A stretch of 15,155 bases of DNA from a virus: the UHGV virus genome UHGV-0151496; one strand, 5' to 3'. Positions within the stretch are counted from its first letter, which is position 1. Each line of letters starts with the position of its first letter. The position numbers and the translations under genes were made by a program. The notes under the pieces were generated by a model that had not been told where the DNA came from, did no database searches, and saw only the letters and a list, made by a program, of their open reading frames with translations. Below, one piece after another: positions 5,469 to 11,882 of this stretch.

Positions 5469-5858
5469 ATGATTGACCGTCACGACTTCGTAAAATGGGT
5501 GCGCACACAGGACACCCGTCTGGCCCCAAAACTTCAGGCAATGTTTGATTTTTATCTCCGTGCCCGTGCCAGCCGGGCACGCACCACAAAACCGGAGAAC
5601 GCAGACACCCTTTATTTCACCGTGGACGACTGTTACCGCGTGGCCTTTACACCACAAGGTCTGGGCCTGTACACCCTGACACCACACGGCGACTCCCTGT
5701 TGGCGTATTACGACTCCCCGGCCTCCGTATTTGCGGCAATGCTGGCGCATCGTACCGCTGGCGGGTGTGCATCGCTGAGTGAATACACCGCTGAATTTAA
5801 CCGCCTTTCCGTCATCTTTTCGCAGGAGTGGCAGAGCGTGACGGGATACCAGCCATGA
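5469..5858 (+). CDS. Hypothetical protein immediately upstream of the replication gene
   Basis: 129-aa ORF; its TGA overlaps the gpA ATG (ATGA at 5855-5858). Confidence 0.55.
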   Translation: MIDRHDFVKWVRTQDTRLAPKLQAMFDFYLRARASRARTTKPENADTLYFTVDDCYRVAFTPQGLGLYTLTPHGDSLLAYYDSPASVFAAMLAHRTAGGCASLSEYTAEFNRLSVIFSQEWQSVTGYQP

Positions 5859-8695
5859 GTGAGTTTGCATGGAGCTGGAATGAACCGCAGCCAGCTATTG
5901 ATCCGGACGACTTCGCGAACTTCAGCCGGTTGCCAAAAACCGGACTGCAACGCGCCATTCGTTACTACCTTGAGGCAGACAAAAAGGCCCAGGAAGAACA
6001 GGAAGCGAAGGGAGAAGCCTTTTTCGCACAATCCGCCATGGGTAAAAAACTCATGGCATCCCTTGAGGAAGCCGGGCAACACAAAAAACTGATAAAAAAC
6101 ATCATCAGTAAGCGCCAGGAAATAAAGCAAGACCCGGTGGCCCGTGCATTTGTCACACTAAAGGCGCTTCCCGTTTATCTGCGAGAACCCCTGAGCCGCC
6201 ACCTCTCGTTCCTGCGCAAGAAGCAGGAAGCCGATCGTCAGAAAGGCAAAAAGAGCTGGCAGGCCGAACGCTACGCGCGCGGAAACCTGCGCAAAATATT
6301 CGAACGTCTGAAGCGCACCGACAGCCGCTGGCTGACACAGGGGTATCGCTCCCTTGCCGGACGCGAACGCCTGGACGATTTGCTTTACCTGCCGCAGCTC
6401 AACAAACACCAGATACAGACGCTGGCCACCATGACGGCGGCGATGTTCAGCAGCACCTTCGAAAAACTCTGCGATGGCTTTGGCGCGACCGATGGTGAGC
6501 TGACCATGGATGTAACGCTGAAGGCGTATCAGATGCTGGCCCGCATGGCGTTACACCTGCACACCATGCCGCCGCATTATGACGCACTGACAACAGACAA
6601 AGACCGGAAGAACGAACCGGAAACGGAGCTGCTGCCAGGCGCAATCCTTCGCCTGACCTGTGCGGAATGGTGGAAACGCAAACTGTGGCTTTTACGTTGC
6701 GAGTGGAGAGAAGAACAACTCCGCGCCGCCTGTCTGGTTTCCAGAAAAACATCGCCCTATCTGAGCCAGGACGCGTTAAGCGAGTTTCGCGCACAACGCG
6801 AGAAAACACGCGATTTCCTGAAAAGTTTCATGCTGGAAAACAAATACGGGTTCACGTTTTATCTCGAGACAGTGTATTACGCGGGAGTAAGTAACCCGGT
6901 TCACCGTAAGGCAGAAATGATGGCCACCATGAAGGGACTGGAACTTCTGGCCGAAGCCCGTGGCGACAGAGCGGTGTTTCTGACTGTCACCTGCCCGTCA
7001 AAATACCACGCAACAACGGAGAACGGTCATCCGAACCCCAAATGGAACGGGGCCACCATGCGCGACTCCAGCGATTACCTGGTTAACACGTTTTTTGCGG
7101 CGGTCCGCAAAAAACTGAACCGCGACGGTCTGCGCTGGTATGGCATCCGCACGGTGGAGCCTCATCATGACGGCACGGTGCACTGGCACATGATGGTTTT
7201 TGCGCATCCTGACGAGATTGAAACCATCGTGTCCCACACCCGCGATATTGCCATTCAGGAAGATCGTCACGAGCTGGGTGATGATATTACCCCACGCTTT
7301 AAGGCGGAGTACGTCGACGGCTCAAAAGGCACACCGACCAGCTACATCGCCACCTACATCGGGAAAAACCTGGACAGCCGTGCCGTGGATGGCATCGACC
7401 CGAAAACGGGCAAGCCACGCGTTGACCACGAAACCGGAAAATCAATGGCCGAGAGCGTGGAACGCGCCATCGGCTGGGCGCGCCTTCACCGTGTCCGCCA
7501 GTTCCAGTTCTTTGGTATCCCCTCCCGTCAGGTGTGGCGTGAACTCCGCCGCCTTGCCAGCCAGATGGCACGCAACCCGGAAGGCCCGCAACGGCTGAAG
7601 GATGACGCAATGGATGCGGTACTCGCTGCCGCTGATGCCGGATGTTTTGCCACCTACATAGAGAAACAGGGCGGCGTACTTGTTCCACGCAAAGACTACC
7701 TGATTCGCACCGCCTACGACCTCGCAGAAGAGCTGAACGATTACGGCGAACAGAGCGCACAGATTTATGGGATCTGGTCACCACTCATCGGGGAATCCTC
7801 CCGTGTGTGCACGCACCCGGATAACTGGAAGCTGGTAAGACGTAAACCGGAAGCGGAAGACAACACCCGCGAAAATGGTTTTGACCTTCAGGGCGGCCTT
7901 GCCGCCCCTTGGACTCGTGGCAATAACTGTCCCCGTGTACAGGAAACGGACAACAACGGGACAGAACAGCCGGAAGAACGGCCAGCACCGTGGCCGCAGC
8001 TTCCTGACGGCGTTGAAGTGAATGAATGGATCCGCTCACTGAAACGGCACGAACGCCGGGCGCTGATGCGTTCGCTGCGTGACAAACAGGCAAAAAACAG
8101 CAGCGATGAAATGCAGAACTGGACACAGAGCCGCAAACAGCCGCGGCCTTTACCTGATAACCACGAGTTACTCGCTAAAGAATGGCGGGAGTCTGCTGAA
8201 TCTCTCGGCCTGCATATCGGTGAACAGCAGATGCAGCACCTGTTACGGGGCGGCAGTCTGTACGTTGACGGCAGCATCATTTCACCGCAGGGATTTGAAA
8301 TTGTACGCAAACCGGATACCCGCCCGGACGGCCTAATCACGCAACTCTGGCAACGCCTGAGCCGTAATCACGGCATAAGCAGCACGGAGATCCGCCATAA
8401 CCCGGTCGCCAGCTATCTGAAACAGCTCGAGGCATCAGACCCTGAAGCCGCCGCACGCCTGGCATCCACACTTCAGCAAGACCAGAACACCATGAAAACA
8501 CCCGTTACCGTGCTTTCTGACATGCTGCGCGCCATCCGCGACGCAGAGCACGCACAGAGAATCAGTGAAACCACTGAACGCGCCCGCCGCAAAGCAGACC
8601 TACTGCGGGGTAGCCTGACCAGTGGAAACAAAAAACAGACAAAAACGGGATTCACAAATCCCGTAAATGAGCAAAAAACGCGCCGCGATATATGA
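5855..8695 (+). CDS. A: Rolling-circle replication initiation endonuclease, P2 gpA family
   Basis: ORF track start 5828 is GTG; the ATG at 5855 overlaps the upstream stop. Contains an HUH-type motif (GTVHWHMMVFAHPDE) and a paired-tyrosine motif (SYIATYIGKNL) typical of P2 A-type Rep proteins. Position matches gene A in the P2 map. Confidence 0.88.
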   Translation: MSEFAWSWNEPQPAIDPDDFANFSRLPKTGLQRAIRYYLEADKKAQEEQEAKGEAFFAQSAMGKKLMASLEEAGQHKKLIKNIISKRQEIKQDPVARAFVTLKALPVYLREPLSRHLSFLRKKQEADRQKGKKSWQAERYARGNLRKIFERLKRTDSRWLTQGYRSLAGRERLDDLLYLPQLNKHQIQTLATMTAAMFSSTFEKLCDGFGATDGELTMDVTLKAYQMLARMALHLHTMPPHYDALTTDKDRKNEPETELLPGAILRLTCAEWWKRKLWLLRCEWREEQLRAACLVSRKTSPYLSQDALSEFRAQREKTRDFLKSFMLENKYGFTFYLETVYYAGVSNPVHRKAEMMATMKGLELLAEARGDRAVFLTVTCPSKYHATTENGHPNPKWNGATMRDSSDYLVNTFFAAVRKKLNRDGLRWYGIRTVEPHHDGTVHWHMMVFAHPDEIETIVSHTRDIAIQEDRHELGDDITPRFKAEYVDGSKGTPTSYIATYIGKNLDSRAVDGIDPKTGKPRVDHETGKSMAESVERAIGWARLHRVRQFQFFGIPSRQVWRELRRLASQMARNPEGPQRLKDDAMDAVLAAADAGCFATYIEKQGGVLVPRKDYLIRTAYDLAEELNDYGEQSAQIYGIWSPLIGESSRVCTHPDNWKLVRRKPEAEDNTRENGFDLQGGLAAPWTRGNNCPRVQETDNNGTEQPEERPAPWPQLPDGVEVNEWIRSLKRHERRALMRSLRDKQAKNSSDEMQNWTQSRKQPRPLPDNHELLAKEWRESAESLGLHIGEQQMQHLLRGGSLYVDGSIISPQGFEIVRKPDTRPDGLITQLWQRLSRNHGISSTEIRHNPVASYLKQLEASDPEAAARLASTLQQDQNTMKTPVTVLSDMLRAIRDAEHAQRISETTERARRKADLLRGSLTSGNKKQTKTGFTNPVNEQKTRRDI
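8646..8663. repeat. 18-bp perfect-arm palindrome cgggattcacaaatcccg (copy 1), inside the 3' end of the gpA ORF
   Basis: Read directly: 7-bp arms CGGGATT/AATCCCG around a 4-nt centre, followed by taaa. Near-identical copy 73 bp downstream. Confidence 0.6.
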
Positions 8696-8718
8696 AGCGC
8701 GCACAAAACAGGCAAAAG

Positions 8719-8736
8719 CGGGATTTCAGAATCCCG
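8719..8736. repeat. 18-bp palindrome cgggatttcagaatcccg (copy 2), upstream of parM; candidate ParR operator/parC-like site
   Basis: Same arms as copy 1, also followed by taaa; lies 36 nt upstream of the parM ATG. Confidence 0.6.
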
Positions 8737-8771
8737 TAAACGATTAATTAATCAACATAAGGAAAAGCGAC

Positions 8772-9731
8772 ATGAAAATTTGTATCGACGACGGCTCCAC
8801 CAACATCAAGCTGGCATGGACTGAGAACGGCGAACGCCGCAACGCCATCAGCCCGAACAGCTTCAAGTCGGAATGGTCTGCGCCGTTCGGCGGCTCGCAG
8901 CCCGCGAACTACATGCTTGATGGCGTGCGCTATGGTTTTGATCCGGTCAGCGATCGCTTTGTCCGGACGACCGACACGCAATACCAGTACAGCGATGTGA
9001 ATGTCATTGCCATTCATCATGCGCTGGTCAAATCAGGTATTACGCCACAGGAAGTGGATGTGGTTGTCACCCTGCCACTGAGCGAGTATTTCGACACAAA
9101 CGCACAGCCGGATATGACCAACATCAACCGCAAAAAAGCGAACGTCATGCGCCCGGTGGAGTACCAGAACGGTGAGGCATTCACTATCCGTAACGTGCGG
9201 GTTATGCCTGAATCCATTCCGGCAGGCTTTAAGGCACTGGCTGACATGAGTCCGTTTGAATCCCTGCTGATTGTGGATTTGGGCGGTACCACGCTGGATG
9301 TGGCAAAGGTTCAGGGGCAACTGGCAGGTATCAGCCAGGTATTTTGCGATCCACACGTAGGCGTTTCACTGATGACCGATGCCGTGCTGTCGGTGATGGC
9401 CACCAACGGTATGCGTACCAGCCACCACATCGCCAGTACCATTATCGAACATCGCCACGATGAAGCCTGGCTGCGCCAGCACATCCACAATGACGCGCAT
9501 TACGCCAGCCTGATGGCGGTTATTCGTGAAAAGGAAGAAACACTGAAACAACGCGTGATCCGCGCACTGGCGGGCTTTTCGGGATACGGTCGGGTGATGA
9601 TTGTCGGTGGAGGGGCGGAGATTGTGGCTCCGGCGGTACATGACGCTTACGGCCTCAACGCAAACATTCACACAACACCGGAGCCACAGTTTGCCCTGGT
9701 TAATGGACTCCATGACATGAACAGGGAGTGA
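8772..9731 (+). CDS. parM: Actin-like plasmid segregation ATPase ParM/StbA
   Basis: N-terminus MKICIDDGSTNIKLAW, SPNSFKSEW, YSDVNVIAIHHAL, VMPESIPAGF, LIVDLGGTTLDV, VMIVGGGAEI and C-terminal ALVNGL closely resemble plasmid R1/R100 ParM (StbA) as I recall it. AAGGAA precedes the ATG. Confidence 0.9.
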   Translation: MKICIDDGSTNIKLAWTENGERRNAISPNSFKSEWSAPFGGSQPANYMLDGVRYGFDPVSDRFVRTTDTQYQYSDVNVIAIHHALVKSGITPQEVDVVVTLPLSEYFDTNAQPDMTNINRKKANVMRPVEYQNGEAFTIRNVRVMPESIPAGFKALADMSPFESLLIVDLGGTTLDVAKVQGQLAGISQVFCDPHVGVSLMTDAVLSVMATNGMRTSHHIASTIIEHRHDEAWLRQHIHNDAHYASLMAVIREKEETLKQRVIRALAGFSGYGRVMIVGGGAEIVAPAVHDAYGLNANIHTTPEPQFALVNGLHDMNRE

Positions 9732-9735
9732 ACCA

Positions 9736-10047
9736 ATGACAACATCAACCAGGCGGATAAGTTTCTATCTGAAGCCAGCCGCAGTCAAGAACGAAGGTGA
9801 AGCATGCACATGGCTGGACAGCCTTACACCAGAAGCCCGCAAAAGCGGCCAACGCGTGGCTTTTCTGGCCGGGCTGGCGCTTCTGAAGACGAATCCGGCA
9901 GAGGCTTACCGGCTGGCTGCATGGGCTGACGATGAGGCGTTATCCGTGACACAAACCAGGACAGAACGCCCCGTGTCACAGCCAGTACCAACCGCACAGA
10001 TAACCAGTCAGATGGCCGGAAATATCCGGGCGCTATTTCCTGAGTAA
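9736..10047 (+). CDS. parR: ParR/StbB-like centromere-binding adaptor
   Basis: 103 aa directly downstream of parM (4-nt gap, GGGAG upstream). N-terminal RRISFYLKP...LDSLTPEARKSGQRVAFLAGLAL resembles the ribbon-helix-helix region of R1 ParR. Confidence 0.7.
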   Translation: MTTSTRRISFYLKPAAVKNEGEACTWLDSLTPEARKSGQRVAFLAGLALLKTNPAEAYRLAAWADDEALSVTQTRTERPVSQPVPTAQITSQMAGNIRALFPE

Positions 10048-10074: not shown

Positions 10075-10099
10075 ATGTAATCAGTAGAGAGTGTGAACC

Positions 10100-10228: not shown

Positions 10229-11374
10229 ATGAACATTCAACAGCGTATAGCAGAACGCTTGGTTCAGGCCAGAAACGACGCGGGAATGAGTGCAAGCGCC
10301 GTCGCAGATGCGATCGGTGTTGTTCGTCAAACCTACAGTAAGTTTGAGCAGGCGCTAGGCGTCCCAAGCGTTACCCAACTCATCATGCTCTGCAAGATTT
10401 TCGATAAGCCTATCGGGTATTTTTATGAGCAAGATGATGGCGAGTTCCGTTTTGCAATGCGAGCAGATAGTCCGGATTTGTTGGATGCTAAACTTCGCAA
10501 TGAGTTGATTGAAAAGTTAAAAAATATCAATGCAATTGAGGAAGCTGCTGATGCTAATTTGCCAGAAGATCTTCCTAACTCAATGCCTATTTTTACCGCC
10601 AAAGCAGAAGATTTGCGAAGAGTCGAAGATAAGGCTATGGAAGAACGTTTCCGTCTTGGTATAGGAAACGCTACTTGCGTTGGTGACATTGTAGCCATTT
10701 TGGAAGCATCGGATATTCGAGTAATCCCGTTCAATCGCGAAGAAACCGATAAAGGGATGGTATTCGGATTTTCTGCGTTTTCGAACAAATACGGTACCGC
10801 GATTTATGTAAATGTTCACGACAGCATTTCAATAGAACGTCAAATCTTCAGTATTTGCCATGAATATGCTCATCTTATCTTCCACCGTGATGAGTATGAT
10901 GGCCCTGCTAAAAGCTATAAAACTAATGGCAAAGCAATTTCACCGGAAGAAAAAGTTGCTAATCACTTTGCTGCTTGTTTTTTGGTACCAGAAAGTGCAT
11001 TGCGAAAACAATTCGTCATGCAAGGTGGTGGATGGGCGTATGAGGAAACCGTCCTTAGACTAAAAAGCATTTTCAGAGTATCAGCCACTTGCATCATCGA
11101 TCGTCTTAGTAAATGTAATTTAATTAATCAACAAAACACTAGATACCTATGGGCAACCGCCAATCGTAAAGGTTGGAAGAGACACGAGCCAAATCCCATT
11201 AGGGAAGCACTAAATTATAAAGGTCGCCTAACCGTCTTATCGCGTAAAGCATGGGAAGCCGGTTCCGCGTCGGAAACCTTCATATCTGAACTTTTAGAAT
11301 TAGACAGAAAAGCTCTCAGCAATCTTCTGGATGAATGGTACGACGAACAGGAGGCCGGAGAGGATGCCGTTTGA
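10229..11374 (+). CDS. Fused XRE-family HTH + ImmA/IrrE (COG2856/DUF955-type) zinc metallopeptidase
   Basis: N-terminal HTH (SASAVADAIGVVRQTYSKFEQALGVPSVTQL) and central HExxH motif (SICHEYAHLIFH) in the context typical of ImmA/IrrE peptidases. 381 aa, AT-rich codon usage unlike neighbouring phage genes. Confidence 0.8.
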   Translation: MNIQQRIAERLVQARNDAGMSASAVADAIGVVRQTYSKFEQALGVPSVTQLIMLCKIFDKPIGYFYEQDDGEFRFAMRADSPDLLDAKLRNELIEKLKNINAIEEAADANLPEDLPNSMPIFTAKAEDLRRVEDKAMEERFRLGIGNATCVGDIVAILEASDIRVIPFNREETDKGMVFGFSAFSNKYGTAIYVNVHDSISIERQIFSICHEYAHLIFHRDEYDGPAKSYKTNGKAISPEEKVANHFAACFLVPESALRKQFVMQGGGWAYEETVLRLKSIFRVSATCIIDRLSKCNLINQQNTRYLWATANRKGWKRHEPNPIREALNYKGRLTVLSRKAWEAGSASETFISELLELDRKALSNLLDEWYDEQEAGEDAV

Positions 11375-11882
11375 ATGCCCCAGATGTGTTATCGATACGA
11401 ATGTACTGTCTGATTTTTACGAAGGTAAATGCTTAGATCTTATCTGGCAAATTTACCCGGGTGGTGTGTGGATTGACCCCTATGTCTGCGAGGAACTAAA
11501 AGCTAAATACAATCTTGATGTTCAGGAACAGCTTACACGCCTGCAACTTCCATACAATTTCACCAATGATTACGAACCTGAACATTTTATTGAAATGGCT
11601 GAGATAAAAAATCGCAGGAGAGCATTGAAGTATGCGGACATAAGCTGCGTTGTTAACGCGAGAATACATGATGCAACATGTCTTTCGGCGGATAATGCGG
11701 TTTATAAAACGTGTGCGGAACGCGGTGTAAAAGCCGCCCGCCACGGAGGGCTACTCCAAGAGGCTGTGCGCAGGAGACTTATCCACAAACATCAAGCCTT
11801 AATGCATTTCCAATTTTTCCTAGATCGTGGGTTAACGATGAAATCTTCTGTTCGAGAACAGATTCTTGCCAGTTTCGAATGA
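11364..11882 (+). CDS. PIN-domain-like nuclease (VapC-like fold), candidate toxin/effector
   Basis: ATG at 11364 with AGGAGG 9 nt upstream (ORF track's 11331 start lacks an SD). VIDTNVLSDF near the N-terminus (PIN strand-1 Asp), acidic residue in VCEELK, then DISCVVNARIHDATCLSADNAVY resembling the PIN D..IAA.A / T.D motifs. Start lies 10 nt upstream of the peptidase stop. Confidence 0.6.
   Translation: MPFECPRCVIDTNVLSDFYEGKCLDLIWQIYPGGVWIDPYVCEELKAKYNLDVQEQLTRLQLPYNFTNDYEPEHFIEMAEIKNRRRALKYADISCVVNARIHDATCLSADNAVYKTCAERGVKAARHGGLLQEAVRRRLIHKHQALMHFQFFLDRGLTMKSSVREQILASFE

Follow-up and report, generated by a model that had tools for sequence, protein, structure and literature searches.

Two palindromic repeat units upstream of parM in a P88-like prophage as a candidate parC-type site for ParR

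In type II (ParMRC) partition systems, the centromere parC is composed of tandem repeats upstream of the operon, which are continuous or, as in R1, split around the promoter, and each dimer of the ribbon-helix-helix (RHH) protein ParR binds one iteron (PMC5016525). The ParR of pB171 uses only two 10-bp repeats (PMC9426499), and the RHH partition proteins Omega and ParG bind their repeats alike in direct and in inverted orientation (PMC5016525). Here, the region between gpA and parM of the virus genome UHGV-0151496 was analyzed. The whole stretch of 15,155 bp is called the window, and all coordinates refer to it. The window is a P88-like (Xuanwuvirus; Peduoviridae, P2-like) prophage sequence and shares 93% identity with Escherichia phage P88 and further members of Xuanwuvirus. 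We propose that two palindrome-containing units in this region constitute the parC centromere/operator of a type II cassette, in which ParR would recognize inverted half-sites; this proposal is given an even chance of being right. The units would probably also serve as operator. An initial annotation of the window had suggested parC-like ParR sites, and this part of it stands as the best-supported reading, with support that is comparative only: co-travel of the palindromes with parMR, their location at the position of iterons, conservation of the DNA, and the likeness of the half-sites to those of R1.

The palindromes and the mobile par cassette

Direct reading and a pattern search both confirmed the two near-identical 18-bp palindromes noticed in the initial annotation. 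Copy 1 reads CGGGATTCACAAATCCCG and copy 2 reads CGGGATTTCAGAATCCCG; each is followed by TAAA, and their start-to-start distance is 73 bp. When CGGGATT-N4-AATCCCG was searched with at most two mismatches, only these 2 sites were found in the window, compared with 0.07 expected by chance, and two or more sites were present in 0 of 200 dinucleotide-preserving shuffles. The motif was likewise confined to these two sites in one whole related phage genome, so that no copy elsewhere was seen in either sequence. A repeat finder identified the palindromes as the cores of two 42-nt direct repeats, which are 81% identical and share the A-rich left flank AAAACAGRCAAAARC. The elements of the region are as follows.

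Palindrome 1, 8646-8663, no strand: CGGGATT-CACA-AATCCCG, inside the gpA open reading frame (ORF); proposed pair of inverted ParR half-sites
Palindrome 2, 8719-8736, no strand: CGGGATT-TCAG-AATCCCG, ending 35 nt upstream of the parM ATG
Repeat unit 1, 8629-8670, no strand: A-rich flank, palindrome 1 and TAAATGA
Repeat unit 2, 8702-8743, no strand: A-rich flank, palindrome 2 and TAAACGA
Central spacer, 8671-8701, no strand: GC-rich inverted repeat and the gpA stop codon (8693-8695)

The comparison covered about 250 related loci, drawn from IMG/VR, metagenomes, and genomes. Three of them (L120, L131, and L074) have different left neighbors: they are unrelated to the window left of approximately 8630 and 93-97% identical to it on the right, and both palindromes are intact in all three. 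The left side of L120 carries a different gpA of 773 amino acids (aa) followed by an unrelated 159-aa ORF, that of L131 two unknown ORFs other than gpA, and that of L074 other sequence. The repeats are part of the cassette, since the homology to loci with other left neighbors sets in at approximately 8630, immediately before unit 1. At the right boundary, most phage-record matches stop at approximately 10047, the parR stop codon, and those in P88 and PhiR44_2 at 10077. These boundaries define a unit of repeats, parM, and parR, which is the canonical parC-parM-parR layout, with the two 42-nt repeats and their identical palindromic cores lying at most 145 bp upstream of parM and inside the cassette boundary. 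Judged from these alignments, the par cassette travels as one unit and the palindromes co-travel with parMR. Among the 80 best loci that reach far enough past gpA, no gpA relative without the cassette was found, the apparent exceptions being truncated contigs or offset coordinates.

Mobile par cassette, 8630-10047, plus strand: repeat region, parM, and parR
gpA, 5855-8695, plus strand: replication endonuclease, starting at ATG 5855 or GTG 5828; Pfam Phage_GPA, E 1.2e-128
parM, 8772-9731, plus strand: actin-like segregation ATPase, 319 aa; StbA_N, E 4.5e-82, and ParM C-terminal domain, E 8e-65
parR, 9736-10047, plus strand: centromere-binding adaptor of the R1 ParR/StbB family, 103 aa; Pfam PF10784, E 3.4e-24

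The matches to Phage_GPA, StbA_N/ParM, and PF10784 bear out the gene identities assigned to gpA, parM, and parR in the initial annotation. ParM is 47% identical to StbA of R100. ParR shares 33% identity with R1 ParR over the N-terminal 61 aa (pairwise BLASTP, E 1e-8), and R1 ParR/StbB matches the same family, PF10784, with an E of 2.7e-30. The ratio of nonsynonymous to synonymous polymorphism (pN/pS) was 0.12-0.18 for parM and 0.11-0.30 for parR, and both genes are under purifying selection.

Copy 1 lies within the gpA ORF, which ends with TGA at 8693-8695, and copy 2 lies outside it. The par cassette supplies the last approximately 22 codons of gpA (8630-8695); in the window, copy 1 is translated as TGFTNP, and the gpA tail ends with TGFTNPVNEQKTRRDI. 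It had been supposed that the gpA protein is constrained here by a DNA site, a statement that has to be recast. In the Hafnia relative (ParR 73% identical), copy 1 is in another frame and has a TGA stop within its loop, and in L131 it is read as the end of an unrelated ORF. Moreover, when nucleotide diversity (pi) was calculated from 143 unique haplotypes, on which all haplotype statistics are based, the third codon positions of the gpA tail (8628-8692) were hardly distinguishable from the first and second ones (0.046 versus 0.043); the corresponding values were 0.059 versus 0.032 in upstream gpA and 0.036 versus 0.010 in parM. Because the reading frame over copy 1 differs among relatives and the tail has no codon-position signature, the conserved entity is the DNA and not the protein of the gpA tail. 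The sequence comparison indicates that this tail is a read-through into the cassette up to the first in-frame stop, and copy 1 would lie in gpA solely for that reason. For annotation, it is useful to know that the essential gpA of these phages has a C-terminal tail that arises by accidental read-through into a mobile cassette.

Conservation, position, and proposed function of the half-sites

The 141-bp repeat region of the window differed from that of P88 by 0.043 differences per site, compared with a parM synonymous divergence of 0.20, and from that of Hafnia by 0.27, compared with 0.45. From these sequence comparisons, the repeat region is under constraint. The diversity of unit 1 was low (pi 0.031), and variability within the region was highest in the central spacer (pi 0.065). 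Within the palindromes, pi was 0.031 in the arms, 0.021 in the GGGA/TCCC cores, which are nearly invariant, and 0.156 in the loops. The arm sequence is the same in both copies, and the arm changes that do occur include 8651 T>C in copy 1 (34 of the 143 haplotypes, P88 included), which is uncompensated and leaves an asymmetric copy 1 (CGGGACT...AATCCCG), and 8735 C>T in copy 2 (19 of 143); in Hafnia, the outer C-G pair is lost in both copies. Since the arms share one sequence and the arm changes are uncompensated, half-sites for a sequence-specific protein fit better than a generic hairpin, and the variation pattern suggests two sequence-specific half-sites around an uncontacted spacer more than it does a generic RNA hairpin.

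Two further variants were observed. The copy 2 loop (8726-8729) is either TCAG or TAAA, the two being connected by the double substitution 8727 C>A and 8729 G>A. The TAAA loop extends palindrome 2 to CGGGATTT-AA-AAATCCCG, and the double change looks like the signature of quasi-palindrome template-switch mutation. The haplotype of IMGVR_UViG_2630968558_000012 (L010) is the only one in which the right arm of copy 1 is AACCCCG and the left arm of copy 2 is CGGGGTT; these changes (8659 T>C and 8723 A>G) affect the same half-site position in the two inner arms.

A genome-wide scan with a ParM alignment gave 53 loci from other species, 49 of which had usable sequence upstream of parM. The contigs of P0029 and P0030 (ParR 63% identical) begin inside parM and hold no sequence upstream of it. 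In nearly all of the 49 loci, the 200 bp upstream of parM were found to hold clade-specific repeats. The usual layout was two clusters of approximately 11-bp direct iterons (e.g., ATTGTTCTCAA) around sequence that looks promoter-like by eye, and R1-type loci carried AAACAAAACCC-like iterons. In the P88 clade, no strong repeats other than the palindrome units are present at that position. The comparison with related ParMR loci that had been suggested in the initial annotation thus gave repeats at the same position, and its remark that the arrangement differs from the direct iterons of R1 was correct, the strongest repeats here being inverted half-sites with 7-bp arms and a 4-bp spacer. The four half-sites are CACAAATCCCG, TGTGAATCCCG, TCAGAATCCCG, and CTGAAATCCCG. 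They (AATCCCG) resemble the R1 iterons (AAAACCC), such as AAACAAAACCC, CTTAAAACCCA, and AAACATACCCA, and look like R1 iterons placed head-to-head.

ParR would be a small RHH-type adaptor of the R1 ParR/StbB family. Its N-terminal RRISFYLKP and C-terminal NIRALFPE are conserved, and within the clade neither the beta-strand segment RRISFYLKP nor the GGGA/TCCC cores vary. The motif N-I/A-x-x-L/M-F-P was found by sequence at the extreme C-terminus of both ParR alleles, of ParR of the Serratia clade, and of plasmid ParRs; R1 ParR ends in KKNAMKLIN. As for the two alleles (window 9736-10047; L083 2501-2815), they are 51% identical overall with a swapped linker, share the N-terminal approximately 60 residues and the last approximately 8 (NIxxLFPE), and are located behind 93%-identical parM genes and the same repeats.

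We speculated that ParR dimers bind the AATCCCG half-sites, with two dimers head-to-head on each palindrome. A distance of 73 bp corresponds to approximately 7 helical turns and would place the palindromes on the same helix face. Such an arrangement, together with the phased A-tracts, could let the region of approximately 140 bp bend around a small ParR oligomer, whose conserved tails (NIRALFPE) would capture the growing ends of ParM filaments and so confer any segregation function. Bound ParR may also repress a weak promoter between the two copies.

That the palindromes flank the parM promoter is a supposition of the initial annotation. A sigma-70 scan of the window and of Hafnia gave no consensus promoter; since the same scan also missed the known R1 promoter, its silence carries no weight. 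A weak candidate, TGAGCA (8668-8673)-N15-TATATG (8689-8694), was read by eye between the copies and had no scan match. It starts just left of the central spacer and extends into it, and its counterpart in Hafnia, also read by eye, is TGAACA-N16-TATAAG. The same interval holds a GC-rich inverted repeat (CGCGC...GCGCG, 8679-8702), located between the palindromes and covering the stop codon of gpA. Hafnia has CACGTG...TGCGTG in its place, and in some relatives an A-run takes over part of it; a covariation analysis of this central stem gave ambiguous registers.

Several observations weigh against the proposal that the units are a ParR-binding parC. All characterized ParRs bind direct repeats (PMC9426499). 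Every characterized ParR system has a parC of tandem direct iterons, 10-20 bp long (PMC9426499), whereas direct orientation is limited here to loosely phased CAAAA tracts, and four half-sites stand against ten iterons in R1. The nearest sister clade, the Serratia-like one, has a different layout and shares only AAAAACGGGA. The asymmetry of copy 1 caused by 8651 T>C and the lack of a consensus promoter in the scan count on the same side, as do the long-range RNA fold and the terminator-like scores described below. With respect to ParR, the AlphaFold2 monomer model (28-sequence alignment) was of low confidence, with a predicted local distance difference test score (pLDDT) of 54.7; this model has an unstructured N-terminus and helices at 20-29 and 32-52, which is compatible with RHH and undiagnostic. 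A phmmer search against all PDB chain sequences gave no significant match, and Foldseek against the PDB gave noise only. In view of the low pLDDT and the lack of a PDB match, the RHH fold of ParR is putative. Furthermore, the close similarity of the relatives precludes strong phylogenetic footprinting, and ParR searches (word-indexed protein, exhaustive profile, and metagenome scan) returned almost only a narrow Escherichia-centered clade. Our literature searches found no study of the P88-type par locus in the library covered. Finally, 1415 of the 1417 occurrences of the repeat region in E. coli were chromosomal and 2 were on plasmids.

Alternative explanations

The region may be parC while ParR reads phased CAAAA(A)C direct repeats in an R1-like manner, and the GC-cored palindromes would then be accessory, for positioning or bending or as the site of a second factor. 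Five CAAAA occurrences are present on the same strand (8629, 8640, 8672, 8704, and 8713), and the first four are spaced by 11, 32, and 32 bp, i.e., about 1, 3, and 3 helical turns. This would agree with the A-rich R1 iterons and their 11-bp period and with the direct repeats of the characterized ParRs (PMC9426499). Moreover, the A-rich flanks are nearly invariant, and the Serratia-like clade retains CAAAAAC motifs while its palindrome arms differ. However, invariance is highest at the GGGA/TCCC bases, an A/G polymorphism affects the A-tract at 8642 in most relatives, and the spacing of the A-tracts is irregular beyond the first two. We regard this explanation as rather doubtful.

Alternatively, the palindromes could act as RNA hairpins in a gpA-parMR transcript, i.e., as a stabilizer of the gpA 3' end, a protective 5' stem-loop, a processing site for parMR, or a long-range helix between copy 1 and copy 2. 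The plus-strand RNA of 8625-8790 was predicted to fold with -39.1 kcal/mol and a z score of -4.9, copy 1 pairing with copy 2; however, a low z score is expected from any two identical palindromes. The stems are kept while the loops are free to vary, and 8735 C>T retains a G-U pair, but 8651 T>C (34/143) gives a C-A mismatch in either fold. The two changes of L010 are compensatory solely in the long-range copy 1/copy 2 helix, and this compensation was seen in one haplotype only. Furthermore, RNA function does not need the same arm sequence in two hairpins, the ribosome-binding site is not sequestered, and Rfam 15 gave no match at E <= 1 on either strand of 8300-9100. An RNA role is considered unlikely.

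The sites could also be operators for a protein other than ParR, either a phage regulator (Cox, C, or Ogr-type) or a host factor, that controls read-through from gpA into parMR. Conserved arms around a free spacer are typical of dimeric regulators, and the location at the end of the early operon would suit such a role. Nevertheless, the sites move with parMR into phages with different early regions and a different gpA (L120, L131), and they occur nowhere else in one whole phage genome. We know of no operator consensus that matches the palindromes, and this explanation appears improbable.

It was further considered whether the palindromes are minus-strand intrinsic terminators or insulators, which would stop leftward (antisense or late-operon) transcription into the early operon. 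In the window as in Hafnia, both copies do receive terminator-like scores on the minus strand, with a stem of 8 or 7 bp followed by TTTTTG or CTTTTG. However, no minus-strand gene or promoter lies upstream within the cassette, and 3.6 kb with plus-strand genes separate the portal/terminase operon from the palindromes. In addition, the T-run is interrupted in the majority haplotype of copy 1 (CCCGTTTCTG), and the identical arms and the fixed 73-bp spacing would be left unexplained. The terminator reading is unlikely, with a very small chance of being right.

Similarly slight is the chance that the repeats have no function and are a recent local duplication of a quasi-palindrome hitch-hiking with the cassette. 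The relatives are close, so that their conservation is partly shared ancestry. However, both copies are kept in Hafnia despite the parM synonymous divergence of 0.45, and the arms are several-fold less diverse than the loops and also less diverse than third codon positions.

The remaining alternative, in which the palindromes are part of a P2-type replication origin or a single-strand initiation signal tied to gpA, draws on copy 1 lying within the gpA ORF and on the P2 origin lying inside gene A; it was raised in the initial annotation and is rejected here as next to impossible, because the repeats also occur detached from gpA, following the 159-aa ORF downstream of the different gpA in L120, adjoining non-gpA genes in L131, and, in the Serratia sister cassette, coming after an ORF that is methyltransferase-like by sequence motif, and further because gpA does not extend to copy 2 and its tail lacks conservation at the protein level. 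A gpA-tied origin is thus ruled out by the mobility of the cassette.

Distribution and comparison with described partition systems

Of 5426 complete E. coli genomes, 1285 carried the repeat region with its gpA/parM flanks (8625-8775), some of them in as many as 3 copies, and the multi-copy genomes raise the question of partition incompatibility. The cassette is thereby carried by an integrating phage in about one-quarter of the complete E. coli genomes, and a novel centromere on it, if true, would imply a partition-dependent episomal phase, either as a plasmid-like carrier state or as an organized segregation of replicating genomes. That ParR recognizes compact palindromes, as the first exception to the direct-repeat rule, and that an integrating P2-like phage has such an episomal phase is a tentative proposal, which we consider possible with the balance of probability against it. 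If ParR does bind the palindromes, the accepted view, in which a type II centromere consists of tandem direct iterons that wrap around a ParR helix, would need a variant with few inverted sites, which would bear on the minimal size of a segrosome and on the evolution of partition specificity and incompatibility. It also raises the question of what an actin-like segregation machine does in an integrating temperate P2-like phage.

A complete P88-like genome was found deposited as a circular, non-mobilizable "plasmid" of 34,461 bp from an E. coli isolate (NZ_CP148288.1, 1-34461). Its genes include integrase, cox, the C repressor, gpA, parM, parR, all structural genes, Hok/Gef, and a Com/methyltransferase module, and it may be an episomal or replicating form. 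Downstream of the cassette, the interval between parR and the portal gene (10229-11882) contains an ORF with a helix-turn-helix and an M78 peptidase (ImmA/IrrE-like; 10229-11374) and an overlapping PIN-domain ORF (11331-11882). P88, phiSM, and further relatives carry other cargo genes there, and the variable cargo indicates that this slot is a moron hot-spot.

The parC-parM-parR locus of R1/R100 (parA/stb) has the same gene order: the repeats form two blocks ahead of parM, and parR follows parM directly. The ParM proteins share 47% identity, ParR belongs to PF10784 in both cases, and A-rich sites with a CCC/GGG core are common to the two loci (R1 AAACAAAACCC; here AAATCCCG); a conserved C-terminal ParR tail motif may be a further likeness, the R1 tail itself being KKNAMKLIN. 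R1 differs by its ten direct iterons of 11 bp, which are placed five to either side of the promoter (PMC5016525), whereas the present locus has two 18-bp palindromes in 42-nt direct repeats and no clear promoter, is located on an integrating P2-like phage, and is fused at its left end to the 3' end of gpA. The par1 locus of pB171 resembles it as a minimal centromere, in which two 10-bp repeats upstream of parM suffice (PMC9426499); the pB171 sites are direct repeats, unlike those described here, and the pB171 ParR has a solved structure, while the ParR of the window had no significant phmmer match to PDB chains. The RHH centromere binders Omega of pSM19035 and ParG of TP228 (type Ib) provide the precedent for inverted half-sites, with comparable contacts in both orientations (PMC5016525); however, they belong to another partition type, with Walker ATPase partners and heptad repeats, and are unrelated in sequence.

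The ParMR loci of Enterobacterales plasmids (TTCTC-type iterons) and the Serratia-like cassette are closer, with ParM 47-61% identical and clade-specific repeats before parM. The plasmid loci differ by their tandem direct iterons of approximately 11 bp around sigma-70 promoters that appear strong by eye. In the course of this comparison, enterobacterial ParM loci, among them a P88-like prophage and an R1-type parC, were also met on contigs labeled Vagococcus, Streptomyces morookaense, "Clostridiales," Lachnospiraceae, and Bacillus (L188, L212, L213, L228, and L240), in whose assemblies contamination or mis-binning is likely. Serratia-like P2 prophages (L191, L312-L314) form the nearest sister clade, with ParM 57% identical and a ParR that begins with NRKISFYLKP instead of RRISFYLKP. 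Their cassette is likewise prophage-borne, has inverted repeats, and shares AAAAACGGGA, in a layout that is otherwise different: in the stretch of approximately 160 nt before parM (L191 2336-2500; L312-L314), an 18-bp inverted repeat, GGGAACGAWAYAGAAAAA ... TTTTTCTRTTTCRTTCCC, has its arms approximately 34 bp apart and is accompanied by GCCGTTTAAACGGC. The L191 cassette follows an ORF with a DNA methyltransferase-like sequence motif and not gpA.

Compared with these known systems, the locus is new in its inverted half-sites, its minimal copy number, its carriage by a phage, and its fusion to the end of gpA, and it is otherwise an ordinary member of a well-understood system.

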